Below, piece after piece: positions 6,723-57,493 of a stretch of 64,000 bases of DNA. The stretch comes from Candidatus Sumerlaeales bacterium (GTDB lineage Bacteria > Sumerlaeota > Sumerlaeia > Sumerlaeales > Sumerlaeaceae), in the NCBI GenBank assembly GCA_036675025.1, contig JAKFFN010000113.1:5337-69336 (forward strand), read 5' to 3'. The notes below the pieces were generated by a model, which saw nothing but the letters and a program-made list of their open reading frames with translations, was not told the origin of the DNA and did not search any database. Both the position numbers and the translations under genes were made by a program. The first letter of the stretch is position 1; the number at the start of each line of letters is the position of its first letter.

Positions 6723-8231
6723 GTGAGTACGGAAGTTGTGACAAAAGCCAAAGCTGGTTCACTTTTCACCGGTACATGGCTTCGTACCGTGACGTTTGCA
6801 ATCATAGGAGCGGCATGTTATGCTGCTGCATTTCCGCCTCTTGAGTGGGCTTTATTGGCGTGGGTCGCGCCGGTGGCTTGGCTGCTGATGGTACGTGACA
6901 AAAGCCCGAGGCAGCGCTTTTGGTTTATGTTTTTAAGCGGGTACATTGGCACGGTACTTCTCGTACACTGGCTCAGTTCGCTTTTCTCCACGCTGTCGCT
7001 GATGCTTTGGATGGTGCCCGCGGCATACTTTGGGGTGTGGGGAGTAACGGCAACACTTGCAGCGGCTGCAGCGCCCGCGTTGCGTATAGTATGGCCTGCT
7101 GTGGCCTGGGCTGCCATAGAGTATTTCCGGTGCGAACTGGCGCCGCTGGCATTTTCGTTTGGCGGTCTGGGCTATAGCCAGGCAAACTGGATTGGATTCA
7201 GGTTAGCTTCCGGCGTGGGAGTCTATGGCGTTTCTGCACTCATGGTACTTCTTGCTTCGCTGCTGATCGAGACTTGGAACCGTCCAGGCAGGTTCATGCG
7301 AGTGGCAGCGATCGGGGCTCTCTGCGCTGTATTTGCAGGTACAGTGGTTAGCACTTCGTCAACTGCGCCCGACGGCAGCACCATTTTTGCCTCTGCAATC
7401 TTGCAGCAACTGAAGCAGGATGATGACATTGGAGCATGGGATGCTTTGCCTGTTCGTGAAAATACAGCGGACGTGGACTTAATCATCTGGCCTGAGCTAA
7501 CCCTGACTGATGACCCGAGGCAGCAGCAGGCATCGTGGTTTATTGATATGATAGTAACCGATGCGCGGCATGCAAACTGGGGAGTGATGTTTGGTGCCAT
7601 GGATTTCTATGGAGACAACAAGGGGAACGGAGCACCGTACCACAACTCTATATTTTTTCTTAATGATGACAAACGCGCAGTTAAAATTGCCGATAAGAAT
7701 CAGCCTATCCAACTCATGTTAGATGGTGACCCCGCAAGCGATATTGCGATTTTTCAGCCTGCGTTTGCATCGCGCGCGATACCGAAAGCCGGTGTTGGCA
7801 TCTGCTACGATGGGTGTTTCCAGAGATTCTCCCGACGTATGGTGAGCAGTGGTGCCGAGTATCTGGTCTTTCCTGCAATGAACCTGGAGAACTGGGGCAC
7901 GATACAGCATAGGCAGCACCAGCGGATGTTCCAGATGCGTGCTGCGGAAACAGGTCGAACCGTTCTGGTGGCAGCGGTAAGCGGTCCTACTTTTGCAGCC
8001 AATCCAAATGGCACGGTCGCCAAAGAAGCGCCGCTACATGAGACCTACGCCTTACGCGTTAATGTTAAGGCTGCGAAACAAACAGTGTTTAACGCCGGTG
8101 GATGGCTCTTTGGTTACATTTGTATGGCGGGCTATGTATTGGGGGTAGCAGTAGTTGCGGTTAACAAGTTTCGCAGCAGAGGCAAACGCGACGACGCCAT
8201 AGGAGCTCAAGATCCAACAGCGGCTGTGTAG
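6723..8231 (+). CDS. lnt: Apolipoprotein N-acyltransferase
   Basis: It starts at a GTG with a GGGAGG RBS. It has N-terminal polytopic membrane helices and a C-terminal CN-hydrolase domain (WPE, GICYD, catalytic Cys). Confidence 0.85.
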   Translation: MSTEVVTKAKAGSLFTGTWLRTVTFAIIGAACYAAAFPPLEWALLAWVAPVAWLLMVRDKSPRQRFWFMFLSGYIGTVLLVHWLSSLFSTLSLMLWMVPAAYFGVWGVTATLAAAAAPALRIVWPAVAWAAIEYFRCELAPLAFSFGGLGYSQANWIGFRLASGVGVYGVSALMVLLASLLIETWNRPGRFMRVAAIGALCAVFAGTVVSTSSTAPDGSTIFASAILQQLKQDDDIGAWDALPVRENTADVDLIIWPELTLTDDPRQQQASWFIDMIVTDARHANWGVMFGAMDFYGDNKGNGAPYHNSIFFLNDDKRAVKIADKNQPIQLMLDGDPASDIAIFQPAFASRAIPKAGVGICYDGCFQRFSRRMVSSGAEYLVFPAMNLENWGTIQHRQHQRMFQMRAAETGRTVLVAAVSGPTFAANPNGTVAKEAPLHETYALRVNVKAAKQTVFNAGGWLFGYICMAGYVLGVAVVAVNKFRSRGKRDDAIGAQDPTAAV

Positions 8232-8737
8232 GCTTTCAGCGCTGATTCACCAAACAAAACAAATCGCACCTCGCAGAGCGGCATATCAGGGTTTTCCGCC
8301 AGGTATTGTTTAACGGCTTTCAGTGACACAGTTGCTGCTTCGCCTATTGGGTAACCATAGATGCCGGTACTGATCGCCGGAAAGGCGATTGAACTGGCTC
8401 CAGCCTCGGCTGCGAGCTGAAGTGCGCAGCGATGTGCGCTGGCAAGCAACTCAGCTTCACCGCTGCCGCCGCCGTGCCATACAGGCCCGACTGCATGGAT
8501 CACCCATTTTGCCGGAAGGTTGCCTGCGCCGCTAATGACTGCCGAACCAGTGGGACAGCCTTGTGGGTACCGTTGCCGGGTTTCTGCATTGATTGCAGGT
8601 CCGCCTGCACGGTGGATGGCACCATCTACTCCGCCTCCTACTGCAAGGGCAGAATTCGCCGCATTCACTATGGCATCCACTTCCTGTTTAGTAATATCAC
8701 CCTGCACCAGCGTGATGTTAGTTCGGCCGATTTGCAT
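8207..8737 (-). CDS. Macro-domain protein (O-acetyl-ADP-ribose deacetylase, YmdB-like)
   Basis: It carries VNAANSAL...GGGVDGAIHRAGG and GYPIGEAA macro-domain motifs. Its 3' end overlaps the lnt 3' end by 25 nt, convergently. Confidence 0.85.
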   Translation of the reverse strand: MQIGRTNITLVQGDITKQEVDAIVNAANSALAVGGGVDGAIHRAGGPAINAETRQRYPQGCPTGSAVISGAGNLPAKWVIHAVGPVWHGGGSGEAELLASAHRCALQLAAEAGASSIAFPAISTGIYGYPIGEAATVSLKAVKQYLAENPDMPLCEVRFVLFGESALKAYTAAVGS

Positions 8738-8807
8738 AGTTATCCTTAGGCGGGATGTAGTATATCACTATACAGGATTTACTACTCAATACTGTTGGGC
8801 GTGTCCC

Positions 8808-9674
8808 GTGTCTGAGAATATTAGCGAGCAACTGCTTGGCCCGATTGCACTTGTCGTGCAGGATCTCGACAGGTGCAAGCGTTACTATGAGTTGGATATT
8901 GGACTGCAGGTAATCAGGCATAGTGGCAGTGTGGTTCAAATGGGAGTGGGCAAAAAGCCATTGCTGATTCTGGAGGAAAACCCTGCTGCCGTGCGCATTC
9001 ACCGTTCTACGGGTCTTTATCACATGGCTTTCTTGTTGCCGACGCGGCGAGACCTGGCTGCGCAAATCCAGCATTTCGTGAAAAACGGTATAGGCATTTC
9101 AGGTATGTCGGACCACGGTGTGAGCGAAGCTTTATATCTGTCTGATCCTGAGGGCAACGGGATCGAAATCTACAGCGATAGACCCCGTGACAAATGGGTG
9201 TGGATAGACGGCGAGGTAGACATGCAGACGATGCCGCTGGATATCGACTCATTGCTGGCGGAACTGCCTGATAATCCACCAGCCTGGACCGGTCTGCCTG
9301 CAGATACTGTTCTGGGCCATGTGCACCTGCGGGTTTCAGACTTGTCCTCGACTACAGAGTTTTATACCAAGATTCTGGGCCTTGAGGTGACTACACGTTC
9401 GTACCCCGGGGCTATATTTCTTTCAAAAAACGGCTATCATCACCACCTCGGCCTTAATGTCTGGGGAAGTGCCGGAGCAGTCTCCCCACCGGATGGGACG
9501 GCCGGTCTAAAGCATTACACATACAGAGCTTCGAGTTCATCGGAACTGGAGCGTATCAGCCAACGCGCGAAAGACATGGGGGTAGCGTTAACAGAAGCTG
9601 ACGGTGAAAGCATTATCTTAAACGATCCGTCTGGAAACCACGTAAGAATTAAAACCGGCGACTCGGCCGACTAA
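8808..9674 (+). CDS. VOC-superfamily protein (two glyoxalase/extradiol-dioxygenase-like modules)
   Basis: A GTG start at 8808 (VSENISEQ...) gives 288 aa, which fits two tandem VOC βαβββ modules (HMAFLL, HVHLRVSDL). The longer track ORF from 8520 would overlap the macro gene and I reject it. Confidence 0.7.
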   Translation: MSENISEQLLGPIALVVQDLDRCKRYYELDIGLQVIRHSGSVVQMGVGKKPLLILEENPAAVRIHRSTGLYHMAFLLPTRRDLAAQIQHFVKNGIGISGMSDHGVSEALYLSDPEGNGIEIYSDRPRDKWVWIDGEVDMQTMPLDIDSLLAELPDNPPAWTGLPADTVLGHVHLRVSDLSSTTEFYTKILGLEVTTRSYPGAIFLSKNGYHHHLGLNVWGSAGAVSPPDGTAGLKHYTYRASSSSELERISQRAKDMGVALTEADGESIILNDPSGNHVRIKTGDSAD

Positions 9675-39805: not shown

Positions 39806-39907
39806 TCTACCCCTCCTCCGCCCGGTAAAAACCAATTCTTGCATTTGTTTCCGGCGCACTGATTCTTGAAATCCTATCAGACATTGCGTTACCGGAGGTT
39901 TCACTGT

Positions 39908-41989
39908 ATGAAGGAGTACTCTACCAGTCAAATCCGCAATGTGGTGCTGGTCGGCCACAGCCACGCAGGCAAAACATCGTTAATCGAGGCAATTCTCTAC
40001 AATCTGAAAATGACTGATCGTGTAGGGACCGTCGAAGAAGGAAATACTGTTTCCGATTACGACCAGGAAGAGATTCGGCGCCGCATTTCCCTTAACACGT
40101 CTCTTATTCCAATTGAGTTCCGCGACCACAAAATTAACATTCTAGACGTTCCCGGCTCTCGGGATTTTATCGGCGAAATACGCAATACCGTCCGTGTTGC
40201 GGACGCGATGATCATCTTTGTGGATGCCACTGCCGGCGTTGAAACCGGTACCGAGATGGCCTATGATCTTGCGGAAGAGTTTAACCTGCCCCGTATGTTC
40301 GTGATCAATAAAATCAACCATGAGAAAGCGCAATTCGAGCCCATAGTTGAACAGGTGAAATCGACCTTCGGTTGCAATGTGGTGCAATTGAATCACCCTC
40401 ACGGCACCGGGAACAACTTCAAAGGCTGCGTAAATCTTCTTCGCATGAAACTCGCCAGCGGCACCCAGGGCAAGGTGGATTACACCGATATACCAGCCGA
40501 GCTTGAAACGCAGTCAAAGGAGCTGAAGGCCGCGTTAATCGAAGCCGCAGCGGAAGGGGATGACGAACTCACCACCAAGTTTCTTGATGGCGAAGAACTG
40601 AGCCATATCGAAGTTCTACGTGGCTTGAAAGAAGACCTTCTCGATCACCGTATTTGTCCTGTTATTGCTGCCAGCGCTACGGAAGCCACCGGTTGCATGA
40701 GTCTTCTCGATTTCATTATTGAGTGTTTCCCGGCACCGGGCGAAGAGGGACCTTTCCGTGGCGAGGATCCGAAAACTGGAAAAGAGATTCTGCTAAAGTA
40801 TGATCCTGCTGCGCCCGTCGCCGCCTTTGTATTTAAGACCATATCCGATCCTTACGCCGGTCACCTTACATTCTTTAAAGTCCTCAACGGAAGCATGAAG
40901 AACGACACCGTTCTCCTTAACACCACCCGCGGACTGGAAGAGCGAGTAAACCGTTTCCTCACCATGCGAGGAAAGAATACGGAAACGGTAGATTCACTTG
41001 CCGCAGGGGACATCGGTGTTTTGGCCAAACTCAACAATACTCATACCAATGACACTCTCTGCGATCCCAAGGCGCCGCTCAAGATTGACCCGACCCCGAT
41101 GCCGCCTCATGTCGTTCACATGGCCATCCGCGCCAGCAACAAGGAAGACGAAGACCGCATCAGCCTCGCAATGCATCGCCTTATCGAACAAGACCCCACC
41201 CTGCATCTCCACCGCGACACCGAAACTCACCAGACGATTCTCAGCGGCATGGGTGACACCCACCTTGATGTCGCTGTAGCGCGTCTGAAAGCGCAGAGCA
41301 AGGTTGAGGTAGAACTGGAGGCGCCAAAAGTAGCCTACCGCGAAACCATTACAAAGCCTGCCAAGGGACAGGGCAAACACAAAAAGCAAAGCGGTGGCCG
41401 TGGCCAGTATGGCGACTGCTGGATCCGACTGGAACCGCTACCCGAAGGCAGTGGTTTTGTGTTCGGATGGGAAGTGGTCGGGGGTGTCGTACCTACCAAA
41501 TACCAGCCATCTGTAGAGAAGGGAATAGCCCAGGCGCTCGAGCGCGGCATACTAACCGGTCACCGCGCCGTTGATCTTAAAGCTATCTGTTACGACGGCA
41601 GCTACCACACTGTCGACTCCAGCGATATGGCATTCCAGGTAGCAGCCTCTAAGGCTTTTAAGAGCGTTGCAAAAAATGCTGCTCCTGTAATCCTAGAGCC
41701 AATTTATAAAATCAAAATAACAGTACCGGAGCAGTACGTGGGCGATGTTATGGGAGACCTGAACTCGCGGCGCGGCCGGATTCTCGGTATTGATTCAAAT
41801 GGGCGTAATCAGCGAATCGAAGCCCTGGTACCACAAGCGGAGATTCATGAGTACTCCCGGGAGCTTCGGTCTATAACGCAGGGACGGGGCACATTTGAAG
41901 CCGTTTATGAAAAGTATGACCGCGTTCCACAGCCGATCCAGGAGAAACTAATATCTTTTGCTCAGCATGACCAGGATGAAGACGATTAG
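39908..41989 (+). CDS. Elongation factor G paralog with degenerate GTPase motifs (EFG II-like)
   Basis: A GGAGG RBS precedes the ATG at 39908. Domains II–V are well conserved (HKKQSGGRGQYG; YHTVDSSDMAFQVAASKAF). The G-domain motifs diverge: G1 GHSHAGKTS, G3 DVPGSRDF (catalytic His→Ser), G4 NKIN (Asp→Asn), G5 SAT. Confidence 0.85.
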   Translation: MKEYSTSQIRNVVLVGHSHAGKTSLIEAILYNLKMTDRVGTVEEGNTVSDYDQEEIRRRISLNTSLIPIEFRDHKINILDVPGSRDFIGEIRNTVRVADAMIIFVDATAGVETGTEMAYDLAEEFNLPRMFVINKINHEKAQFEPIVEQVKSTFGCNVVQLNHPHGTGNNFKGCVNLLRMKLASGTQGKVDYTDIPAELETQSKELKAALIEAAAEGDDELTTKFLDGEELSHIEVLRGLKEDLLDHRICPVIAASATEATGCMSLLDFIIECFPAPGEEGPFRGEDPKTGKEILLKYDPAAPVAAFVFKTISDPYAGHLTFFKVLNGSMKNDTVLLNTTRGLEERVNRFLTMRGKNTETVDSLAAGDIGVLAKLNNTHTNDTLCDPKAPLKIDPTPMPPHVVHMAIRASNKEDEDRISLAMHRLIEQDPTLHLHRDTETHQTILSGMGDTHLDVAVARLKAQSKVEVELEAPKVAYRETITKPAKGQGKHKKQSGGRGQYGDCWIRLEPLPEGSGFVFGWEVVGGVVPTKYQPSVEKGIAQALERGILTGHRAVDLKAICYDGSYHTVDSSDMAFQVAASKAFKSVAKNAAPVILEPIYKIKITVPEQYVGDVMGDLNSRRGRILGIDSNGRNQRIEALVPQAEIHEYSRELRSITQGRGTFEAVYEKYDRVPQPIQEKLISFAQHDQDEDD

Positions 41990-42399
41990 TCAATGAGGGC
42001 CTGGGAAGCAGTGCCAGCAGTTTACTGTCCCATATGGAAGGATGCACGTACGCTCTAGTGTACCAAATCGTGCAGGTGTGATGTGGTCTCTGAAAGACCG
42101 TTGATCACAAACCATTGAACACGAACACTTTACGGAGATATCAAGCGTGCCCATTCGCTAGGACTGCTTTTTGTTACTATAGGCTGTCACGAAGCGCGAG
42201 AAAGTCACAACAAGACGCGAATCGTGACAGATTTGGCAGTTTCTGCGAGAGGGAAGCCGCAGAATGGGGGGTCGGATCCAAGCGCGAGGGATCCGGCCCT
42301 TCGCTATTTTAGCGAACTGCTGTTTAAAAGTATGGCCAGGAGGGGGGAGGAGGTTCTCCCGCTGGTGATTAAAATCCGGCCGTGAGAACGCAGCATCTT

Positions 42400-43149
42400 T
42401 TAGCCAAACATGCTGCTATTACCAATGAAGTCACAGACTTCGTAAAGCCGCTTGATACGCTGAAGGTCTTGGCACTCCGCGTGGCGGTTATGGCGATCGA
42501 TCAGCAAAGCTGCCATACCGCACTGGGCTGCCGGCCGGTAATCTTCCTCGGGATGATCGCCAACAAAAACGATCCTGCCGGGATCGCAATTGCCACATTT
42601 GTCCAGTGCGCGTCGGAAAATTTCGGTCCCCGGCTTTTCACAGCCAACCGAAGCACTCGTAATCACGAAGTCGAAAAAGTCGGCAATCTCCAGCTTCTTT
42701 AGAAAATCATCCAGGTAGGTGCTGAAGTTCGAAACAATGCCCATCTTGATGTTGTTTTCGGCAAGCGCCTGCAGCGTCTCCAGCGCATCTGGAAAAAGCC
42801 TGACGAACTCGCCCTCTTCAAAGCGGTCAATATAGTCCGCTGCCAGGTGCTCAATAAATCCAGGTGTGCGGTTCAGTCCTTTGGCGCCCAAAAGATCTGC
42901 AAATGCCGTCGAGTACAGGTGCTGCCAGAAAGCTCGGGCCTCTGCATCAGACGAACATCTTGTATCAAACTGACGGGATCTTGCAGCGCGGCGCAATACT
43001 TCGTGAACCTTGTGCACCGTGACGACGCAGCCCTGCTCTGCGCAGGCATCAACAAAGAATTGCTCATACCAATATTCCGAATCAGTATTAGTACCGAGGA
43101 GGGTGCCCCCGGCGTCGAAAAGAACGTAGGAATACGGCATGTTGGACAT
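42400..43149 (-). CDS. HAD-superfamily hydrolase (subfamily IA-like)
   Basis: Motif I is VLFDAGGTL, a DxG variant. Motif IV is VFVGDHPEEDY. An AAGGGG RBS precedes it. It lies 36 nt downstream of the 477-aa gene. Confidence 0.8.
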   Translation of the reverse strand: MSNMPYSYVLFDAGGTLLGTNTDSEYWYEQFFVDACAEQGCVVTVHKVHEVLRRAARSRQFDTRCSSDAEARAFWQHLYSTAFADLLGAKGLNRTPGFIEHLAADYIDRFEEGEFVRLFPDALETLQALAENNIKMGIVSNFSTYLDDFLKKLEIADFFDFVITSASVGCEKPGTEIFRRALDKCGNCDPGRIVFVGDHPEEDYRPAAQCGMAALLIDRHNRHAECQDLQRIKRLYEVCDFIGNSSMFG

Positions 43150-43185
43150 GGATCCGCCCCTTGAAAATTGTTAGGATCCCCCTGC

Positions 43186-44619
43186 TCAGATTTCCTGAAC
43201 GAGGGCCAGTTGCTCTTTCTCTACAAAGACTTCCGACATTTTATGGAGCGGGCGGAGCGGAATTGCGGTTTCTATGCAGAATTCCAGAATCCGCAGAATC
43301 ACCAGGTATTCAAGCGTACAGCGTTCCATTGGGAAATCATAATACACACGGACGCTGGTTGAAAACGTCTGGTCAAAAATATCGCTCATTACAGGAACAC
43401 GGATCTGCTGCAGGTCCGGTTGCTGGAACATGTCGAATTGAAGCTTCAATTGCCTGCGCTCTGTAAGCTGCTGCTCGAAATACGTGCAGCGCTCTCGCCA
43501 GAAATCCAGCACCTGCTGGATTACGTGTAGCGCCCAACCGATCCCGCTTTCTTCCAGGTCGATCCAGATAGGCTCATAAACATTTACATCATCAGCCTGC
43601 AGGCGCCGGCGAATGTTCAACGTTTCCGTTACCGAGAACTTCCACAGCTTCAGCTTGGAGTTGGCATCTGAGAAAACATCTGCCTGCACTGCCGCTGAAA
43701 ACTTTGCATGACTGAGCAGAAACAATTCCATTACGAACTGCGAAAACTGCTGGCGGGTATCCGCGCTCATCAGTGCAAAGAAGTTGCTCTCTGCAGAGGT
43801 CCATTCCAGGAACTCCACATCGTAGCGCCCCAGCACTTCAGAAGATGCCTGGTGAAGCCACGCGATTCCATCAAATGGCAGCGTACGTATTAGCCCGCCG
43901 CGACCGTTAAAATCCGCGGACCGTCGGTTATCCAGGAAGTTCGTACGTAAGCGCAGTTCCGGTTCCTGCAGACCAATCAGGGTGTCATAAAGAAACAGCA
44001 GGATAACCTTCTGCATCAATACCTGCATAAACGCCGGCGTCGCATTCGTGCGTGCGCCGATGCCTACCTTCCACAGGTCCAGCCACCGCGCAAATTCCTC
44101 AGCCCGCTGACTGTTGGTCTTGCGCTGGATCTTGTTCCACTGCTCCGCAATGTGTGCGCCCTCAGATACGGGAATGATTACCAGTTCCTGCAGGCCCGCA
44201 AAATCGTTTCCCCACCGTATGAGTTCTTCCATGGCAGAATCATATAGAAAAAAGCTCTTTTTCCCAATGAAGAGGATATAGGGAATCTCGCAATGCGGCT
44301 TTAGACGCAGCAGCGATTCTGCAATGAAAGCATTTTTATCTACGTACTGTTCGAACAATTCATGAAATTGCGGCAGATCGGCAGTCACTGTATAGATGAG
44401 GCAAAAGGGCCGCGCATCGTATTGTGGCTGGCTTACAACGTACGGCGGAAAGCGTCTTACGCCGCGGCGGACAATAGCAGAAAGATCGCGTCCCGCTTCG
44501 CTCTGCACCCCATCAGGCGCATGCACCGGGTTGAGTTCCACCGGAAACGGTTCAATGTCACCGCGGCGCTCACTCCGGATTTCGTCTATATGTTGCCAAA
44601 AGCGTTCAAACAGATTCAT
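43186..44619 (-). CDS. Hypothetical protein (477 aa, no recognisable domain)
   Basis: It is a long uninterrupted ORF, co-oriented and tightly linked with the HAD gene. I found no nucleotide-binding or metal motifs. Confidence 0.55.
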   Translation of the reverse strand: MNLFERFWQHIDEIRSERRGDIEPFPVELNPVHAPDGVQSEAGRDLSAIVRRGVRRFPPYVVSQPQYDARPFCLIYTVTADLPQFHELFEQYVDKNAFIAESLLRLKPHCEIPYILFIGKKSFFLYDSAMEELIRWGNDFAGLQELVIIPVSEGAHIAEQWNKIQRKTNSQRAEEFARWLDLWKVGIGARTNATPAFMQVLMQKVILLFLYDTLIGLQEPELRLRTNFLDNRRSADFNGRGGLIRTLPFDGIAWLHQASSEVLGRYDVEFLEWTSAESNFFALMSADTRQQFSQFVMELFLLSHAKFSAAVQADVFSDANSKLKLWKFSVTETLNIRRRLQADDVNVYEPIWIDLEESGIGWALHVIQQVLDFWRERCTYFEQQLTERRQLKLQFDMFQQPDLQQIRVPVMSDIFDQTFSTSVRVYYDFPMERCTLEYLVILRILEFCIETAIPLRPLHKMSEVFVEKEQLALVQEI

Positions 44620-44753
44620 AATACTGGGGAGCTAATTCCTGCGAAAGGGGGGAGTTAAGCAAGAGGAAACGCAGAAATTGTTATAGACCGTGTGCGGTTC
44701 TTGCTTCTTCCTTTCATTTCAGAAGATTTACAAACTTTTACTGGAGAGTTCCC

Positions 44754-45041
44754 ATGCCTGAACGCCTGGCTGACAACAAAGTCACAGAACAGTTAAATAC
44801 CTTGTCTGGATGGCAGCGAAGTGGCGACCAGATCGAAAAAGACTTTGAGTTTAAAGACTTTGCAAAAGCGCTCGCCTTTGTAAACCAGGTAGGAGATGAA
44901 GCCGAACGCATGGACCACCACCCCGACATTTTTTTGCATAGCTGGAACAAGGTAAAAATTTCCCTGACCACCCACTCCGCAAAAGGCTTAACTGAAAACG
45001 ATTTTGAACTTGCCCGCAAGATTCAGAAGCTTCAATCCTAG
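44754..45041 (+). CDS. phhB: Pterin-4a-carbinolamine dehydratase
   Basis: It has the signature ERMDHHPDIFLHSW and is 95 aa. A GGAGAG RBS precedes it. Confidence 0.9.
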   Translation: MPERLADNKVTEQLNTLSGWQRSGDQIEKDFEFKDFAKALAFVNQVGDEAERMDHHPDIFLHSWNKVKISLTTHSAKGLTENDFELARKIQKLQS

Positions 45042-45048
45042 GCATTCT

Positions 45049-45393
45049 ATGGAAAGTAAAGACCTTGATGAACTGGAAATCGGCCCCGAGGAAGTGGAAC
45101 CGCTCATCGGCAATGAAAATCACAATACTGATATCGTTGACGTGCGGGAAGAGTCTGAGCTTGCAGGGGGCATCCTGCCAGGTGCAATTCATGTCCCAAT
45201 GTCCCGGTTCCAAGAGCACATTCCTAGCTTTACCAGCGATCGCCGCTATGTAATTTACTGTGCCCATGGCGTACGTAGCCTGCATGTTGCAGAATGGCTA
45301 TGTGCAAACAAAGGCGTCAGCGCAAAGTCCATGCGCGGGGGCTTTGCAGACTGGAATGGGCCGATAGCTTCTTATAACGGCGGCACTCGTTGA
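45049..45393 (+). CDS. Rhodanese-domain protein (single domain)
   Basis: It has the active-site loop CAHGVRS with the catalytic Cys. The start is taken at MESKDL, 8 nt after the phhB stop. Confidence 0.8.
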   Translation: MESKDLDELEIGPEEVEPLIGNENHNTDIVDVREESELAGGILPGAIHVPMSRFQEHIPSFTSDRRYVIYCAHGVRSLHVAEWLCANKGVSAKSMRGGFADWNGPIASYNGGTR

Positions 45394-46118
45394 GAGGCCT
45401 GTTCATTACAGGCACCGATACTGGCGCAGGCAAAACAGTCGCAACGGCAACTCTCTGCCGGATTTTGCGAAGCCGCGGAATCGATGCCGTTGCCTTCAAG
45501 CCCTTCGCTACTGGCATAGGCCCCGATACCCGCTGGAAAGACAATGATCCACTTATCCTGGCCGCGGCTATGGACTATGCCGAACCGCCTGAGGTAATCG
45601 CTCCTTTGCGATTGAAGCCGCCCCTCAGCCCTTACGATGCTGCCCGCGTAAGCCACGCCTCGTTTGATATAGATGCAATCATACAGGCAACTGAAGCCGT
45701 GGCTACCCGACATGAACTTGCGCTTGTAGAAGGCGTGGGGGGAGTTTGTGTGCCTCTGACTGAAGATGTACTGGTTGCCGATTTTGCAAAGCGACTGGGT
45801 CTTCCGGCTCTTGTAGTTGCCAGATCAAGCCTTGGCACCATAAACCATAGTCTATTGACGGTCACCGCCCTGCGTTCTGCAGGTGTCTCCGTGGAAGGGC
45901 TGATTTTTTCCCGGCCCGGTTCCGGTGAACTCAGCCTGGATGAAATAGTGGGACCTGAAACAGCCTGTCGTTTTGCGCGTACTGCTTTTTATGGCCTCAT
46001 TCAGCATAGTAGTGAACTTGATTTCGCCGGTAGCGTTGACGAGTTCGTCTCTGCGCTGCCAGTAAACGACCAGGCTCTTATAGCAGTTGCAGATTCCCTG
46101 CTAACCGGTACTACCTGA
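45390..46118 (+). CDS. bioD: Dethiobiotin synthetase
   Basis: Its N-terminal LFITGTDTGAGKT P-loop is typical of BioD. It has a 4-nt overlap with the rhodanese gene. No other bio genes are adjacent. Confidence 0.85.
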   Translation: MRGLFITGTDTGAGKTVATATLCRILRSRGIDAVAFKPFATGIGPDTRWKDNDPLILAAAMDYAEPPEVIAPLRLKPPLSPYDAARVSHASFDIDAIIQATEAVATRHELALVEGVGGVCVPLTEDVLVADFAKRLGLPALVVARSSLGTINHSLLTVTALRSAGVSVEGLIFSRPGSGELSLDEIVGPETACRFARTAFYGLIQHSSELDFAGSVDEFVSALPVNDQALIAVADSLLTGTT

Positions 46119-46119
46119 G

Positions 46120-47478
46120 ATGCGGGGTCCGCGGACCTTTCTTCGCAAGTACTGGCCCGAAATATTGCTCCTACTGATGTTCGTGGGACTGTCGCTCTAT
46201 TATGACGCTCAACTCAAAAGTCGTCTCGATATTGATTCGCACCGTTACCTGGAGCTTGGAAATCGTCTGCTCGAAACTGGCCGGTTTGAGCATAGAGGGC
46301 TGGATGGCAACCTGACTCCCGACTACAGCAGAACTCCAACGTTTCCTCTGCTAATCGCGGCCTCGATGTCAATATTTGGCAAAAATTCAACGGCCGCAAT
46401 CACAGCAGTAATCTGGCTGCAGCGCCTGGCGTGGGCTGGCTCAGTGTGCTGGTTGCTTCCACGCATTCGCTCCGGCAGTGGAAGAGTTCGCCCTTGGTCT
46501 TTGATTGGTAAAGTCGTGCTGCTGTTTTCGCCCGTGGTGCTTTATCATGGAGCGCTGCTGCTGACGGACCTCCTTTACGCCGCCGGATTGCTGGCAGCAT
46601 GCCGGCTCACATTCCGGTCTTTAAACCAGCAACCGGTGTCTGCCCTTCCAGTGGGATTGTTTCACGGCGTGCTCACGCTCCTGCGACCTGTGCATTTACT
46701 CGTTCCCGTGATCCTGAGCCTGCCATTTATCAGGCACCGTAATACTACTGTCGTTGTTTTGATCTTCGCCGCATTTCTCGTTCCGGCAGGGTGGATGATC
46801 CGCAACCATAGCATCCACGACAGCTACTCATTAGTAGCTTTGGACGGTCGTGCCCTTGCTCTTCACCGCGAACAGACGATACGCCAGATGCAGCCCGCAG
46901 ATAGTAGCGCAGAATACGGACCGGAATTTATAGCAGCGCTTCATTCCACAAACGAGAATCCTATCACGGCCGCATGGATTCTCATGCGCGACTACCAGCT
47001 AACCGAGATTCACGCGGACAAAACAGCCAAGGCCGTTGCTCTTGAAGCGATCAGAACAGATCCGCTCAACTACCTGAAGCAAACTGCCAGCAATCTCGGC
47101 CGATTGGTCTGGAGCCGGATCGACGGCTACAACGTTGCACAGGTTCTGATGCCGGCGGCAGGGGAGCGGACCTGGCAACTGGCCGGAACAGCTAACGGAA
47201 TCTGGGGTGTTGTAATGTTTTTGTTAATCCCTGTCTGGCTTGTTGTAACGCGGATCAGGCTACGCCATTTTTACAACCGTGTCACCATAGCGTTGATTCT
47301 TCTCGCCCTATATATGGCCGCCTTACCCGCGTTTACTACCGTAACCTACGGCCGCTTCATGCTTCCCCTGCTGCCTTTGGTCGGGCTTGTTTATTGCATG
47401 GCAGATATTGGCCCACAGAAGAAGTCGTCTCGCCGTTGGCAAGAGAAAAACAAAAAGAAAAACTTTCCTGAAAGCTAG
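46120..47478 (+). CDS. GT-C fold membrane glycosyltransferase (GT39/ArnT/PMT-like)
   Basis: It is predicted to have about 10 TM helices. The N-terminal loop has a DxD-like motif (DIDSHRYLE). Confidence 0.6.
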   Translation: MRGPRTFLRKYWPEILLLLMFVGLSLYYDAQLKSRLDIDSHRYLELGNRLLETGRFEHRGLDGNLTPDYSRTPTFPLLIAASMSIFGKNSTAAITAVIWLQRLAWAGSVCWLLPRIRSGSGRVRPWSLIGKVVLLFSPVVLYHGALLLTDLLYAAGLLAACRLTFRSLNQQPVSALPVGLFHGVLTLLRPVHLLVPVILSLPFIRHRNTTVVVLIFAAFLVPAGWMIRNHSIHDSYSLVALDGRALALHREQTIRQMQPADSSAEYGPEFIAALHSTNENPITAAWILMRDYQLTEIHADKTAKAVALEAIRTDPLNYLKQTASNLGRLVWSRIDGYNVAQVLMPAAGERTWQLAGTANGIWGVVMFLLIPVWLVVTRIRLRHFYNRVTIALILLALYMAALPAFTTVTYGRFMLPLLPLVGLVYCMADIGPQKKSSRRWQEKNKKKNFPES

Positions 47479-47562
47479 GATTTTGCTTTCATGCGTTGAC
47501 ACGCTAGGCGCATCATCCGAAACCTAACAACAAAGTAAGTGTGAAAGGTCTCTCGACCACAA

Positions 47563-48945
47563 ATGGCAGAAGTTTATCCATTTATTGGAACTCGATACAA
47601 CTCGCAGCTGATCGGAAGCCTGAGTAAGGTCATCAGTCCGCCGCATGATGCGATAACACCTGAGTTGCAGAACACGTTGTATGATCGGCACGAGCACAAT
47701 ATTGTCCGAATAGCATGCGTGCGGGAAGGCGAGGGTGAAGACGAGGAAGAGGGCTTTTCCAGCCGGTTTAACCGTGCCGCCAACACGCTGGGCTCCTGGC
47801 GCAGCGACGGCGTATTTATCGAAGATGAACGTCCGTCTTTCTACTTGTATGAACAGGTGTTTAAATCTGCCGACGGCCAGGAGCAGCGCCGTTCTGGTTT
47901 TTTTGCCAAGGTAAAACTGGAAGAGACCGTTGTCAGTACTGATCCTGATGCCGTCGGACAACTCTCTGGTGCCCGGGCTGACATGCTCAGCTTTATCCGG
48001 TCCACAAAAGCCAACGTCAGCCCTATAACATCCTTGTTTGATGACCCGGGGCAGGAAGTTACCCAACTCCTCCAGGCACGCATGAAAGAAAAGCCCTGGG
48101 AGGAAATGAAAGACGAAGACGGCGTTGTTCATCGCCTGTGGGTGGTACAGAAGAAAGATTTGCTTCTTAACGTCATCGAGGCCATGAAATCTCGCAACAT
48201 CTTTGTAGCTGAAGGCCAGAAGCGCTACGTGACTGCCCAGGCGTATCGCGATGAGATGCGCGCTGAGGCTGGCAAGGGCGATGGCAAGCAGCCGTATGAT
48301 TTCATTATGATGCTGCTGCTCCCGGCGCACCAGGAAAGCCTCATGGTTGAGCCGGTACATCGCGCCCTTACCAAGAGCATCATGGCAGACGTCGATCTGA
48401 AAGACGCACTGGAAGAGCTCGGCGATAACTTTACCATCGAGCGAGATAAAGTCAACCTGGCCGACAGCGAGGCGGAAGCTGCCCGAGTAGTGGAGAGGTT
48501 GCGTGAACTTGGGAACGACGGCACTACCATCGCACTGGTTCATGCATCGGGCGGCGTGTTTTACCTGAAACTCAACAGCGACGTAGAAATGGCCGACCTG
48601 TACGACGATTCCCAGGTCCCCGATTGCATGGGGGCTGTGGACGTCTGCATTCTTCACAACTATATCATCAACCATGTGCTCATCGGGAACCCGGAATATG
48701 AACTGGATGATGATGAGTGCCTGTATGTGGAATCGGCAGAACAGCTTTTAAATCTGCTCAAACAGAAGAAGGCCGTCTGCGGCTTTCTACTGAATCCCAT
48801 GCCGGTTTCGCGCATGATGACGATTGCAGGCTCGTCGGTGCTTGTGCCCATGGACGAGGGGGCTATGCGTCCGCGTCCTGCTACAGGCCTGGTCCTTCGA
48901 AACATGCAGACCGACAATCCCAAACCCGCTCGCGCGAAGAAATAA
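47563..48945 (+). CDS. DUF1015-family protein
   Basis: Its N-terminus, YPFIGTRYNSQLIGSLSKVISPPHDAI, matches the conserved DUF1015 start (PF.G.RYN....ISPPYD.I). Confidence 0.75.
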   Translation: MAEVYPFIGTRYNSQLIGSLSKVISPPHDAITPELQNTLYDRHEHNIVRIACVREGEGEDEEEGFSSRFNRAANTLGSWRSDGVFIEDERPSFYLYEQVFKSADGQEQRRSGFFAKVKLEETVVSTDPDAVGQLSGARADMLSFIRSTKANVSPITSLFDDPGQEVTQLLQARMKEKPWEEMKDEDGVVHRLWVVQKKDLLLNVIEAMKSRNIFVAEGQKRYVTAQAYRDEMRAEAGKGDGKQPYDFIMMLLLPAHQESLMVEPVHRALTKSIMADVDLKDALEELGDNFTIERDKVNLADSEAEAARVVERLRELGNDGTTIALVHASGGVFYLKLNSDVEMADLYDDSQVPDCMGAVDVCILHNYIINHVLIGNPEYELDDDECLYVESAEQLLNLLKQKKAVCGFLLNPMPVSRMMTIAGSSVLVPMDEGAMRPRPATGLVLRNMQTDNPKPARAKK

Positions 48946-49026
48946 TACGTGCGCCTGGCCCGTGCTTAGATGCTCAGCCAGCTCGCTTCATTGATTACCA
49001 TCTCAACCCTCAGGTAGTACCGATCC

Positions 49027-50118
49027 ATGGCTCGTACGTCCAATAATCTTCTCACGCCCAACCCGGGCAGCCCGGCCGCTGCCGGCTATATCATGCCGGC
49101 AGAATGGGAGACACACGCCGCTACCTGGCTGGCCTGGCCCCATAACATTGAGGACTGGCCGGGGAAGTTTTCCGTCATCCAATGGGTTTACACAGATATC
49201 ATCAGGCACCTGGCGAAAGATGAGATCGTGAACCTGCTGGTAAACGATGCCGCCATGGAAACCAAAGCGCGGCGTGTTCTGGTTAAGCATCACGTGAACC
49301 TCGACGCTGTGAAGTTTCACCACGTAAAGACCGATCGCATCTGGACCCGTGACAGCGGCCCGATTTTCATCCAGAACTCCGACGGCAAAACCGCCATCAC
49401 CAACTGGCACTTTAATGCCTGGGCCAAATATGACAACTGGACCAATGACGACCTGGTGCCGGATGCGGCGGCTGGCGTGCTTCGCTTGAAGCAGTACAAG
49501 CCGACTGCCGGCAAGCCGAAGCGCCGGGTTGTTCTCGAGGGCGGCAGCATCGACGTGAACGGTGCCGGCCTTATCCTTACTACCGAAGAGTGCCTGCTGA
49601 GTGAAGTGCAGCAGCGCAATCCCGGGCTCAGCCGCGAAGAGGTCGAGCAGGTCATGTGCGACAACCTCGGCGTCCGCAAAGTTCTCTGGCTGAAAAATGG
49701 CATCGCCGGCGACGACACCCACGGCCACGTTGACGATCTTGCGCGCTTTACGGATAAGAACACGATTGTCATCGCCTCGGAGCAGGACAAGTCCGACGCG
49801 AACTACGAGAATCTCCGAGAGAACGTGGAACTTCTGCGCAGCATGAAGAACCTGCAGGGTCGGCCGTTCCGGGTTGTGGAACTTCCTATGCCGGCGCCCG
49901 TGGTATTCGAAGGTCAGCGTCTGCCGGCCAGTTATGCGAACTTCTACATCGCCAATAAGAAGGTTCTGGTGCCGACGTTTAATGATCCAAACGACCGCAT
50001 TGCCCTGAACATCCTGGCCGACCTGTTCCCGAAGCGGCAGATCATTGGCATTCATAGCCTGGACCTTGTCTGGGGTCTCGGCACGCTGCATTGCATGACG
50101 CAACAGCAACCTGCGTGA
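49027..50118 (+). CDS. aguA: Agmatine deiminase (porphyranase/PAD family)
   Basis: It has AguA family blocks (ATWLAWPH; EGGSIDVNGAG; GTLHCMTQQ with the catalytic Cys). Confidence 0.85.
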   Translation: MARTSNNLLTPNPGSPAAAGYIMPAEWETHAATWLAWPHNIEDWPGKFSVIQWVYTDIIRHLAKDEIVNLLVNDAAMETKARRVLVKHHVNLDAVKFHHVKTDRIWTRDSGPIFIQNSDGKTAITNWHFNAWAKYDNWTNDDLVPDAAAGVLRLKQYKPTAGKPKRRVVLEGGSIDVNGAGLILTTEECLLSEVQQRNPGLSREEVEQVMCDNLGVRKVLWLKNGIAGDDTHGHVDDLARFTDKNTIVIASEQDKSDANYENLRENVELLRSMKNLQGRPFRVVELPMPAPVVFEGQRLPASYANFYIANKKVLVPTFNDPNDRIALNILADLFPKRQIIGIHSLDLVWGLGTLHCMTQQQPA

Positions 50119-50503
50119 TTTTCGCTGGCGTGGGTAAGAAGGGCCGCGAAAGTTTTCCACAGGCAAAAAAAAAGTAATTCTAATTGCTTCAAATGCAGTG
50201 GATGCAGCGTTTTTACCTGATCTATTAAGTACATAATTATCTCGTTCTGTGCAGGTTTGGGCCGGGTAAACAGCCTTTGAATCGCTGCCGAAGTGGCCGT
50301 CGCGGAAGTGGGAGAGTTCCTGGTTCTTTTAGTTTTCATAGTGCTGGTATTTAACCGGAAGAAATCCGGTGCGCCATTCCCACACGGACCCTTAGAGACC
50401 CTTACGGGATCAGAATCATTAATCGGGGGAGTGATGCCAAACCTTGTTGATCCTGTCGGGATCATATCAGAGGAAGTAGCTTGGCGATAGCTGGAGGTGT
50501 TGG

Positions 50504-51895
50504 ATGCTCAATGGATTAAAGTCGTTAGGGTGGTGGCAGGTTTGGGTATTGCTGTTTTGTGTTGTCGGGCAGGCCGCGGAGCAATCAGACGCGAGTACGT
50601 CATCGCCGCTCTACTTTAGACAGTATGCGGTGCGGGAGTCTCGTCTGTTGGAGCTGGCAGGGGACGGCAAATACCGCCTGCTGGAGCGGGAGCATGATCG
50701 CGTAGATGAGGTCGATCGCGGGGCATGGGACGAGGTGAGTGCGGGGCAGTTGCGGTTGGTATCGTGGCGGTTTTCCAAGACTATAGATTCACCGCCTTTA
50801 AAGCTTGGTTGGGTGACAACAGAGACTTTATCGGAACTGGATCGACTGGACTCAGCCCTGGACCATATCCTGTCGCATGATCAAAGCACCACTATCCCGG
50901 GGGGATATGTCGATAACACCTTGCGCTATGCGCTTAACGATACAAAGGTGCGGCCGGATATTGATTACGAACGGATAAGAATTAAAGACCCCCAACCTAT
51001 AAGCCGGTTGGAAGTTGAGAGTTTTAAGACCGCGGTGGGCGCGGCGATGACATCACCCATTGCAGTGACGGTTGTGGCGAAGCAAAGGGAGCAGAAGGAA
51101 GTTCCGTATTTGGAGATTCCTGCCGTGACCGACTATCCGTGGGTAGGTCTGCAGAGGGCTTCTGTTAATGATGCTGCCGCGCTGGAGGCAATTACGACGG
51201 CGCCAGCGGTGGAGCGCATTCGCGGATTGTTTGTGCAGATTACGGAGGAAGAATTCCGGCGAGAGGCGACATCGCACCAGGAGTATCTGTTTGTGCCGCA
51301 GTTTGGTGCAGATGTTAGCAGTGCACCGGCGCCAGTCAAAACTTCGGATCCTGCGGTGGACCCGGTAGGCGCCATCCAGGCGTTCGTGCCGAGCCTTGTG
51401 GAGCTATCCACTAGCACGACGGAAGAAGTTGCAGGCTATTATGCGAATCCCGGCCCTACCATGAAAGGCGGATTGTCGGGGAGCAGGCTGTACCTGTTTC
51501 CGGATAGTTCCTATTTCTTCATTGAGTGGGCAGATATTATGCCCGGGCTGATAACGAGCCGGGGCATATGGGACGTGGTGGGGGATTATGTGCTGCTAAC
51601 GGATGATGGCACCGTGCAGGGCAAGGGGCGTCGGATGGATGATTTTGCATACCTGCCGGTGACGTATAAGGAGAAGGGGACAACGGTGACGGGATTGTTG
51701 GGATTTCCGGAGTCGTATGAGTGGCTGATGGATGATGATGTTTTTGACAGCCGGCGTCTGTTGTTCAGGACTATGGAGAGGTCGCGGGATATTCCGGTGG
51801 CGGAGGCAGCGGAGCTAAAGGCTGAACTGATGCGGAAACATTGGCGTCCGGATTACGCGGCGGGCAAGCCGGGGGCGCAGCCGCCGAAACGGTAG
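50504..51895 (+). CDS. Secreted hypothetical protein (463 aa)
   Basis: It has a signal peptide (LGWWQVWVLLFCVVGQA) and a GGAGG RBS. I found no assignable domain. Confidence 0.55.
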   Translation: MLNGLKSLGWWQVWVLLFCVVGQAAEQSDASTSSPLYFRQYAVRESRLLELAGDGKYRLLEREHDRVDEVDRGAWDEVSAGQLRLVSWRFSKTIDSPPLKLGWVTTETLSELDRLDSALDHILSHDQSTTIPGGYVDNTLRYALNDTKVRPDIDYERIRIKDPQPISRLEVESFKTAVGAAMTSPIAVTVVAKQREQKEVPYLEIPAVTDYPWVGLQRASVNDAAALEAITTAPAVERIRGLFVQITEEEFRREATSHQEYLFVPQFGADVSSAPAPVKTSDPAVDPVGAIQAFVPSLVELSTSTTEEVAGYYANPGPTMKGGLSGSRLYLFPDSSYFFIEWADIMPGLITSRGIWDVVGDYVLLTDDGTVQGKGRRMDDFAYLPVTYKEKGTTVTGLLGFPESYEWLMDDDVFDSRRLLFRTMERSRDIPVAEAAELKAELMRKHWRPDYAAGKPGAQPPKR

Positions 51896-57405: not shown

Positions 57406-57493
57406 TGGTGCCGGAGACAGGACTTGAACCTGCACAGCCTTGCGACTACTAGAACCTGAATCTAGCGCGTCTGCCAATTCCGCCACTCCGGCA
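57406..57493 (-). tRNA. tRNA-Leu (anticodon CAG), 88 nt incl. encoded CCA
   Basis: The minus-strand sequence is GCCGGAGTGGCGGAATTGGCAGACGCGCTAGATTCAGGTTCTAGTAGTCGCAAGGCTGTGCAGGTTCAAGTCCTGTCTCCGGCACCA. It has a 7-bp acceptor stem, a long variable arm, the anticodon loop TTCAGGT and a GTTCAAGTC T-loop. It closely matches the D and anticodon arms of E. coli leu tRNA(CAG). Confidence 0.9.

Follow-up and report, generated by a model that had tools for sequence, protein, structure and literature searches.

Restriction-modification enzymes of the type IIL/IIG MmeI family, of which MmeI (5hr4), DrdV (7lo5) and BpuSI (3s1s) have solved structures, are proteins of 900-1000 amino acids that combine a nuclease domain and a helical spacer with a gamma-class N6-adenine methyltransferase domain, a target-recognition domain and, in the MmeI type, a C-terminal bundle. 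In MmeI the catalytic residue D70 lies at the start of strand 2 of the nuclease domain, and E80 and K82 lie at the end of strand 3 (PMC2731913); in the crystal structure this domain (residues 1-155) is disordered and the spacer comprises residues 156-300 (PMC4833311). Homologs of MmeI that lack both the PD-ExK motif and endonuclease activity also exist, for example YeeA of B. subtilis, and action through partner proteins has been proposed for them (PMC2731913). Here we describe a 477-aa protein, called X in what follows, which is encoded immediately upstream of a HAD hydrolase in a 64,000-nucleotide stretch of a Candidatus Sumerlaeales genome (GCA_036675025.1, contig JAKFFN010000113.1, positions 5,337 to 69,336; the window). 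Structure prediction indicates that X is a PD-(D/E)xK fold without the canonical catalytic residues, joined to a helical spacer of MmeI type. X belongs to an undescribed, sparsely distributed bacterial family with its core in Candidatus Sumerlaeota; divergent subfamilies, at least 10 in number, occur in other uncultured bacteria.

The two genes and the spacer between them are arranged as follows:

43186-44619, minus strand: X, 477-aa open reading frame (ORF) with an ATG start
43150-43185, minus strand: X-HAD spacer of 36 nt, in which AAGGGG ends 7 nt before the HAD ATG
42400-43149, minus strand: HAD hydrolase, 249-aa ORF with an ATG start

This layout, including the AAGGGG element and the FDAGGTL motif I of the HAD, was described in a first-pass annotation of the locus, and its coordinates and sequence are correct; both start codons are also backed by the N-termini of orthologs. 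The same annotation called the two genes translationally linked, which goes too far: they do not overlap, and linkage is left with the absence of a terminator-like site from a scan of the 36-nt spacer, promoter and terminator scans here scoring near chance.

X was said to belong to no recognisable family, and we agree. No match was found in Pfam, NCBIfam, PHROGs or (with phmmer) the PDB sequences, nor to any characterised glycosyltransferase or nucleotidyltransferase, families that the first-pass annotation had given as examples of a match that would overturn its view; searching the PDB with a broad X-family profile (hmmsearch) also returned nothing. The reported lack of transmembrane segments holds as well (highest 19-residue Kyte-Doolittle mean 1.55), and the protein is acidic, with a pI of 5.2 against a family median of 5.7. 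A search of 5.8 billion proteins recovered 57 full-length relatives at 42-100% identity, all of them unannotated and, where an organism was named, assigned only to Candidatus Sumerlaeota or BRC1. The nine X loci in GTDB species genomes are likewise all from Sumerlaeota metagenome-assembled genomes. When 1.84 billion cluster representatives were searched exhaustively with a profile, 62 proteins were recovered, about 45 of them distant (13-35% identity) yet full-length (430-470 aa), and at 30% identity these distant relatives fall into no fewer than 10 subfamilies. A second large search with a broad alignment, limited in its number of candidates, mostly returned the core family again.

Conservation within the family is strong. 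The core group has 53 invariant columns in a 31-sequence alignment, rich in Trp and charged residues, and across 48 representatives of the wider family the best-conserved positions are D94 (98%), W179, W183, G188, K306, P350, G359 (96%), Q394, D396 (96%) and R424. No Pfam domain was detected in 44 relatives of X; the weak signals were single and scattered, among them a faint MmeI_N match in one of the 44 (E 0.0036). A methyltransferase in particular found no Pfam match in these relatives and no Pfam or NCBIfam match in X itself.

The AlphaFold2 model of X, built with the family alignment, has a pLDDT of 87.7 and a pTM of 0.87, and the AlphaFold2 models obtained are confident and compact. Three parts can be delimited in the model of X:

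X residues ~1-137: restriction-endonuclease-like alpha/beta domain
X residues ~140-345: helical region of MmeI/HsdM type
X residues ~346-477: family-specific C-terminal part, mostly helical

After residue 137 the model is almost all helical and has no Rossmann sheet. Its only low-confidence loop (pLDDT <50, residues 240-245) coincides with a hypervariable basic linker at residues 238-250 (window ~43870-43908), which is the site of a ~40-residue insertion in the relatives P0040 and P0043. In Foldseek, as an independent comparison, the top match of the model was DrdV (E 6e-4), aligned over the whole of X, followed by BsaXI, HsdM, BrxX and small PD-(D/E)xK nucleases; the best structural matches are restriction-modification enzymes together with PglX of BREX. 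Both the alpha-beta-beta-beta-alpha-beta core of the PD-(D/E)xK fold and the multi-helical spacer that follows a nuclease domain are present in X as predicted. In the models the N-terminal domain runs alpha, three strands, two helices, two or three strands, helix, and the published order of elements in the MmeI nuclease domain is the same (PMC2731913). Because that domain is absent from the MmeI crystal structure, the structural match to MmeI speaks for the helical part of X, and it is therefore the matches to HsdR, 9y1l, DrdV and BpuSI that inform on the N-terminal domain.

Profile comparison gave a consistent picture of where X and MmeI would align. With residues 1-388 of MmeI (100% identical to the PDB sequence) as the query, hhalign paired X 90-132 with MmeI 83-128 at E 0.011, which is below homology significance. 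Against a profile of 121 MmeI-family sequences, X 113-132 (PYILFIGKKSFFLYDSAMEE) was paired with MmeI 109-128 (RYVLVCDFQRFRLTDLITKE); at E 6e-4, a probability of 29% and 20 columns this match too is below homology significance. The register agrees between the two comparisons, and such agreement is not a proof of homology.

The catalytic site itself is where X and MmeI part. In the 48 representatives, the columns equivalent to the canonical D...(D/E)xK site are acidic in at most nine and basic in at most three, and the equivalents of D70, E80 and K82 are not conserved. The earlier statement that X carries no nuclease motif is thus right at the level of sequence, and it does not extend to the predicted fold, which is restriction-endonuclease-like. 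X resembles the N-terminal half of the MmeI family, nuclease-like domain plus helical spacer, but is only ~477 aa long, lacks the methyltransferase domain, the target-recognition domain and the C-terminal bundle, and sits in a housekeeping rather than a mobile or defence context; apart from the faint MmeI_N signal of one relative, no Pfam match of X to MmeI_N, MmeI_hel or MmeI_Mtase rises above noise. Despite the resemblance of its front half, X therefore fails the defining features of MmeI-family type IIL/IIG enzymes. YeeA-type homologs provide a precedent for an MmeI-type N-terminal region without nuclease catalytic residues, but they retain the full methyltransferase and target-recognition domain and are flanked by helicase or GIY-YIG genes, and X has neither. 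A likeness to Type I restriction-modification systems is also seen, the N-terminal domain of X resembling the HsdR nuclease domain (2w00, 3h1t) and the helical part the N-terminal helical domain of HsdM (3lkd, 2ar0, 2okc); unlike these systems, X is devoid of motor or helicase domains and of a Rossmann methylase, and its neighbourhood contains no HsdS or HsdM partner gene.

A lead on function comes from the distant subfamilies. In subfamily B, which is ~22% identical to X, the X-like gene (X') lies directly 3' of the epoxyqueuosine reductase gene queH at two loci, L021 and L022, between which X' is 29% and QueH 48% identical; in L021 the two genes overlap by 4 nt, and all other flanking genes differ between the loci. 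A metagenome scan with a subfamily-B alignment added eight further short contigs. Altogether queH is immediately upstream on the same strand in nine of ten subfamily-B loci (~6 lineages, QueH 48-56% identical), with spacers that run from a 4-nt overlap, which is frequent, to ~30 nt in most of them; at the single exception a PEPCK-like gene is upstream of X'. Six of these loci have the following coordinates:

L021, 1488-3295: queH-X'
L022, 6107-8329: queH-X'
L025, 1026-2974: queH-X'
L027, 1811-2808: queH-X'
L028, 90-1048: queH-X'
L029, 1285-2210: queH-X'

The tRNA 2-thiouridylase gene mnmA lies convergently downstream in L022 and L026. The tight two-gene operon of queH and X' hints at a role in tRNA or queuosine biology, and our literature searches returned no description of a queH-linked partner protein like X'. 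Outside subfamily B the neighbourhoods vary. In L018, X' overlaps by 4 nt a downstream 552-aa ORF of no matching family (7404-9059); in L019 it follows a type II secretion/MshE ATPase gene; and in L020 it stands alone, near nusB. No thrC, HAD, methyltransferase or defence genes were found at the distant-subfamily loci.

Within Candidatus Sumerlaeota the gene order around X was compared in 12 distinct lineages, collected by contig look-ups and a genome scan and scored by tblastn. Five arrangements were seen (percentages are the identity of X to that of the window):

X-thrC-HAD: L001/2 (44%), L003/4/13 (52%), L006/10 (68%), L015 (45%) and L016 (45%)
X-thrC-other gene: L007/14 (49%)
X and HAD abutting: the window and L012 (59%)
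X with an adjacent, convergent inverted HAD: L009 (81%)
Neither thrC nor HAD nearby: L005, L011 and L008

In eight of the 12 lineages a HAD ortholog is found no more than two genes away from X, and in six thrC directly follows X. The pairing described in the window hence does recur elsewhere in the phylum, mostly with thrC in between, and it never occurs in the distant subfamilies. The intervening gene encodes threonine synthase (TIGR00260 at 192-220 bits, cut-off 167; NF006050 at 305 against 303 in L006). The X-thrC spacers measure 5-79 nt (5 nt in L003, 15 nt in L007) and the thrC-HAD spacers 14-108 nt (14-20 nt in L001 and L003). Neither thrC nor a remnant of it was found in the 64-kb window. 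From these arrangements we infer that the direct X-HAD junction of the window and L012 is a derived state, left after thrC was lost from an ancestral three-gene operon, and for that reason X and HAD are probably co-transcribed in this genome.

On the other side of X, a gene-free region separates it from a divergent trio of genes assigned by Pfam:

44620-44753: divergent intergenic region of 134 bp, between X (minus) and the pterin-4a dehydratase gene (plus)
44754-46118, plus strand: divergent trio of pterin-4a-carbinolamine dehydratase, rhodanese and BioD-like AAA_26 genes
44754-45041, plus strand: pterin-4a-carbinolamine dehydratase (PCD) gene
45004-45393, plus strand: rhodanese gene
45390-46118, plus strand: BioD-like AAA_26 gene

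The three genes of the trio overlap by 38 nt and 4 nt, and as a combination they suggest no obvious common pathway. The 134-bp region had been put forward as a promoter region of the X-HAD pair; it is indeed free of genes, but it is common to the divergent plus-strand operon rather than private to X, and presumably holds promoters for both directions. Promoter-like matches were found at 44645-44618 (minus) and 44593-44622 (plus), in numbers that are near chance. The trio adjoins X in five lineages (the window, L009, L006/L010, L012 and L003/L004/L013). The identities of X, HAD, PCD and BioD to their counterparts in the window drop in parallel across loci, as vertical descent would predict.

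Some weaker associations were also noted. In L008 (6001-9556) X is followed by birA and then by the type III pantothenate kinase gene coaX, and in L019 (1969-7413) a distant relative of X again has a coaX three genes away; with the BioD-like gene of the window added, these may form a faint recurring biotin/CoA neighbourhood, with coincidence a possible cause. Directly downstream of thrC in L007 (8803-10356) is a 517-aa unannotated ORF of no matching family, which by BLASTP is unrelated to the 552-aa ORF of L018. No further conserved partner emerged among the ORFs of unassigned function that flank X at different loci, these being mutually unrelated.

The HAD protein can be placed with more confidence in its superfamily than in any named subgroup. 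It matches PF00702 at 80.4 bits (cut-off 26.4) and PF13419 at 75.1 bits; the best NCBIfam match, over its full length, is the REG-2-like model TIGR02252 (E 4.7e-34), at 117.9 bits below the cut-off of 155.2, and the protein clears the cut-offs of just TIGR01549 and TIGR01509, which are generic for HAD-IA. All four HAD motifs are present, namely D12-A-G14 in motif I (FDAGGTL, residues 11-17), S140 in motif II, K172 in motif III and G197-D198...D203 in motif IV. D12, S140, K172 and D198/D203 are invariant in the orthologs, which are 52-64% identical, and FDAGGTL with all catalytic motifs is unchanged in the four compared (that of the window and three others). The Asp at nucleophile+2, the general acid/base, is absent from all four and replaced by G14, so the replacement pointed out in the first-pass annotation is a conserved property of the ortholog group. 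PDB relatives include human HDHD3 (3k1z) and the archaeal PH0459 (1x42), which likewise lacks Asp at this position and has Val instead (FDFVGTL); Gly at +2 distinguishes the X-linked HAD group from REG-2-like/HDHD3 HADs.

The analogies drawn from this replacement need qualifying. Loss of the Asp at +2 occurs in dehalogenases, phosphonatase and P-type ATPases; beta-phosphoglucomutase is, as textbooks have it, a DxD enzyme, and therefore the suggested likeness to mutases is inaccurate. As to the alternative suggestion of a dehalogenase, the model for L-2-haloacid dehalogenase type II (TIGR01428) scores 48.3 bits against a cut-off of 125.4 and motifs II-IV are phosphatase-like, with GDxxxxD in motif IV. 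By its motifs the protein is a HAD-IA of the phosphatase type in which Gly occupies the general acid/base position. Since the thrC-HAD spacing is tight, a chemistry on phospho-amino acids is suggested, and its natural partner is more likely to be thrC or phospho-amino-acid metabolism than X.

Taken together, we favour a reading in which X would be a free-standing housekeeping derivative, or relative, of the type IIL/IIG nuclease-plus-spacer module. X has lost, or never had, the canonical D...(D/E)xK residues, and it carries no methyltransferase or target-recognition domain, the family-specific helical C-terminal part standing in place of the missing domains. The invariant polar residues of the family (D94, K306, Q394, D396 and R424) would mark a different conserved polar site, and the X-HAD pair would be a relic of the X-thrC-HAD operon in which co-function is not demonstrable. 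As an account of the whole family we give this about an even chance of being right. Its functional part, that X may be a factor which binds or processes nucleic acid, with tRNA as the probable target, is inferred from fold ancestry and the operon that a 22%-identical sister subfamily forms with queH; it is tentative and on balance doubtful. A bolder version, in which the X family would be a tRNA-modification component, an exapted restriction-enzyme front half working with QueH, and subfamily A would have the same activity in a different operon, seems to us a good deal less likely still; in that case X could present tRNA or serve as a partner subunit, or it could stand in, as a non-orthologous protein, for some other step of the queuosine pathway.

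Several observations count against this favoured reading. The call that the catalytic motif is missing depends on predicted secondary structure together with a MAFFT alignment whose sequences share ~20% identity, and X may instead have a non-canonical active site with D94, D127 and E131. An acidic protein such as X is not what a general nucleic-acid binder would lead one to expect. The queH link belongs to another subfamily, with no queH found in the window or in the subfamily-A loci L001-L017, and the three other distant loci (L018-L020) have neither queH nor thrC. Furthermore, the 12 lineages behind the synteny counts all belong to one phylum and do not represent independent events. In two of these lineages X and thrC are 5-15 nt apart, a spacing that would also be compatible with a genuine functional tie of X to thrC/HAD.

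That last possibility leads to the best surviving alternative, in which X, threonine synthase and HAD form a metabolic unit. X would serve or regulate an O-phosphohomoserine or phosphoserine step, for example as a non-orthologous kinase, HAD would be the matching phosphatase or phosphotransferase, and the window would keep two of the three parts. The frequency with which thrC and HAD accompany X in the 12 lineages, the short X-thrC spacers of L003 and L007 and the persistence of the X-thrC-HAD order down to 44% X identity are all in keeping with it, and non-orthologous homoserine kinases are known, including the HAD-type ThrH. However, the fold predicted for X is nuclease-like with a helical spacer, and neither a nucleotide-binding motif nor a kinase-like match was found in it. 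X also occurs without thrC or HAD in L005, L008 and L011, the window and L012 have lost thrC, L009 has HAD in inverted orientation, and none of the five distant-subfamily loci has either gene. The 14-20 nt thrC-HAD spacers of L001 and L003, moreover, make the tie of HAD to thrC no looser than its tie to X. We consider such a unit improbable.

Less probable again is that X is a defence or restriction component descended from a type IIG/IIL enzyme, acting as a solitary nuclease or a sensor with an unlinked methyltransferase and with HAD as an accessory effector. The restriction-modification and PglX matches of the model would suit such an origin, as would the partner-dependent action proposed for MmeI homologs without PD-ExK (PMC2731913). 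Contrary to this, no methyltransferase, helicase or other defence gene was found next to X in ~20 loci, and no relatives were found on 72,556 plasmids, in 50,697 phage genomes or in IMG/VR. PADLOC gave no significant defence-model match for either protein, its only hits being Cas5b for X (E 0.004, 15 bits), which we regard as noise, and PDC-S19 (E 0.015). The canonical catalytic residues are absent, and the stable housekeeping synteny, with divergence congruent with that of the neighbours, is unlike the typically patchy distribution of defence genes, so that the context weakly refutes a defence role. We conclude that X, present once and inherited vertically, is a chromosomal gene with housekeeping neighbours and not a defence gene; given these neighbours, the lack of a meaningful PADLOC match and the lack of mobile relatives, nothing points to the small-molecule modification or defence module considered in the first-pass annotation. 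The idea that X is a decaying N-terminal pseudogene fragment of a type IIG gene, accidentally next to HAD, would account for a protein that has no more of the MmeI architecture than its nuclease-like and helical parts, but its chances are negligible and conservation refutes it, given more than 100 full-length relatives of maintained length (about 430-490 aa), the 53 invariant core-group columns, a C-terminal part of ~130 residues that is family-specific and conserved (including Q394, D396 and R424), confident and compact models and no methylase remnant downstream.

Around X in the window, Pfam places an EF-G-like gene, ABC permease genes, a DUF1015 gene and the biosynthetic trio, and no paralog of X was found in the 64 kb. 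The remaining features are:

39866-41989, plus strand: EF-G-family GTPase of 707 aa, starting with TTG and complete in its five EF-G domains, directly 3' of an ABC permease gene
41990-42399: 410-nt gene-free gap between the convergent EF-G-like and HAD genes
46120-47478, plus strand: 452-aa ORF without a Pfam match
47524-48675, minus strand: 383-aa antisense ORF that almost wholly overlaps the DUF1015 gene (47563-48945, plus)
49003-50166, minus strand: 387-aa ORF without a Pfam match, opposed by an equally long ORF (49027-50118, plus), which leaves the coding strand ambiguous
50504-51895, plus strand: 463-aa ORF without a Pfam match
57406-57492, minus strand: tRNA-Leu(CAG), the sole RNA gene detected in the window

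The EF-G-family GTPase is perhaps a paralog of EF-G and not the main fusA. The 410-nt gap has no Rfam match; terminator-like hairpins that overlap one another lie in it at 42284-42316 and may form a terminator for both directions; Rfam likewise detected no RNA features near the X-HAD module. The product of 46120-47478 is hydrophobic throughout and looks, from its sequence, like a multi-pass membrane protein, and the antisense ORF at 47524-48675 is most likely a shadow ORF.

X thus introduces a new family of more than 100 proteins for which neither Pfam nor NCBIfam has a model, and its neighbour is a conserved HAD ortholog group with Gly at the acid/base position, usually found beside thrC. For annotation, neither a functional nor a defence module should be read into the X-HAD pair. 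A concrete lead is offered by the operon that the sister subfamily forms with queH: to our knowledge the physiological partners and the reductant of QueH have not been established, and a dedicated partner would interest the tRNA-modification field. If our explanation is true, the type IIL/IIG nuclease-plus-spacer module would also exist as a vertically inherited housekeeping protein with a different polar site, and the X family would illustrate an exchange between defence enzymes and the core machinery of the cell.

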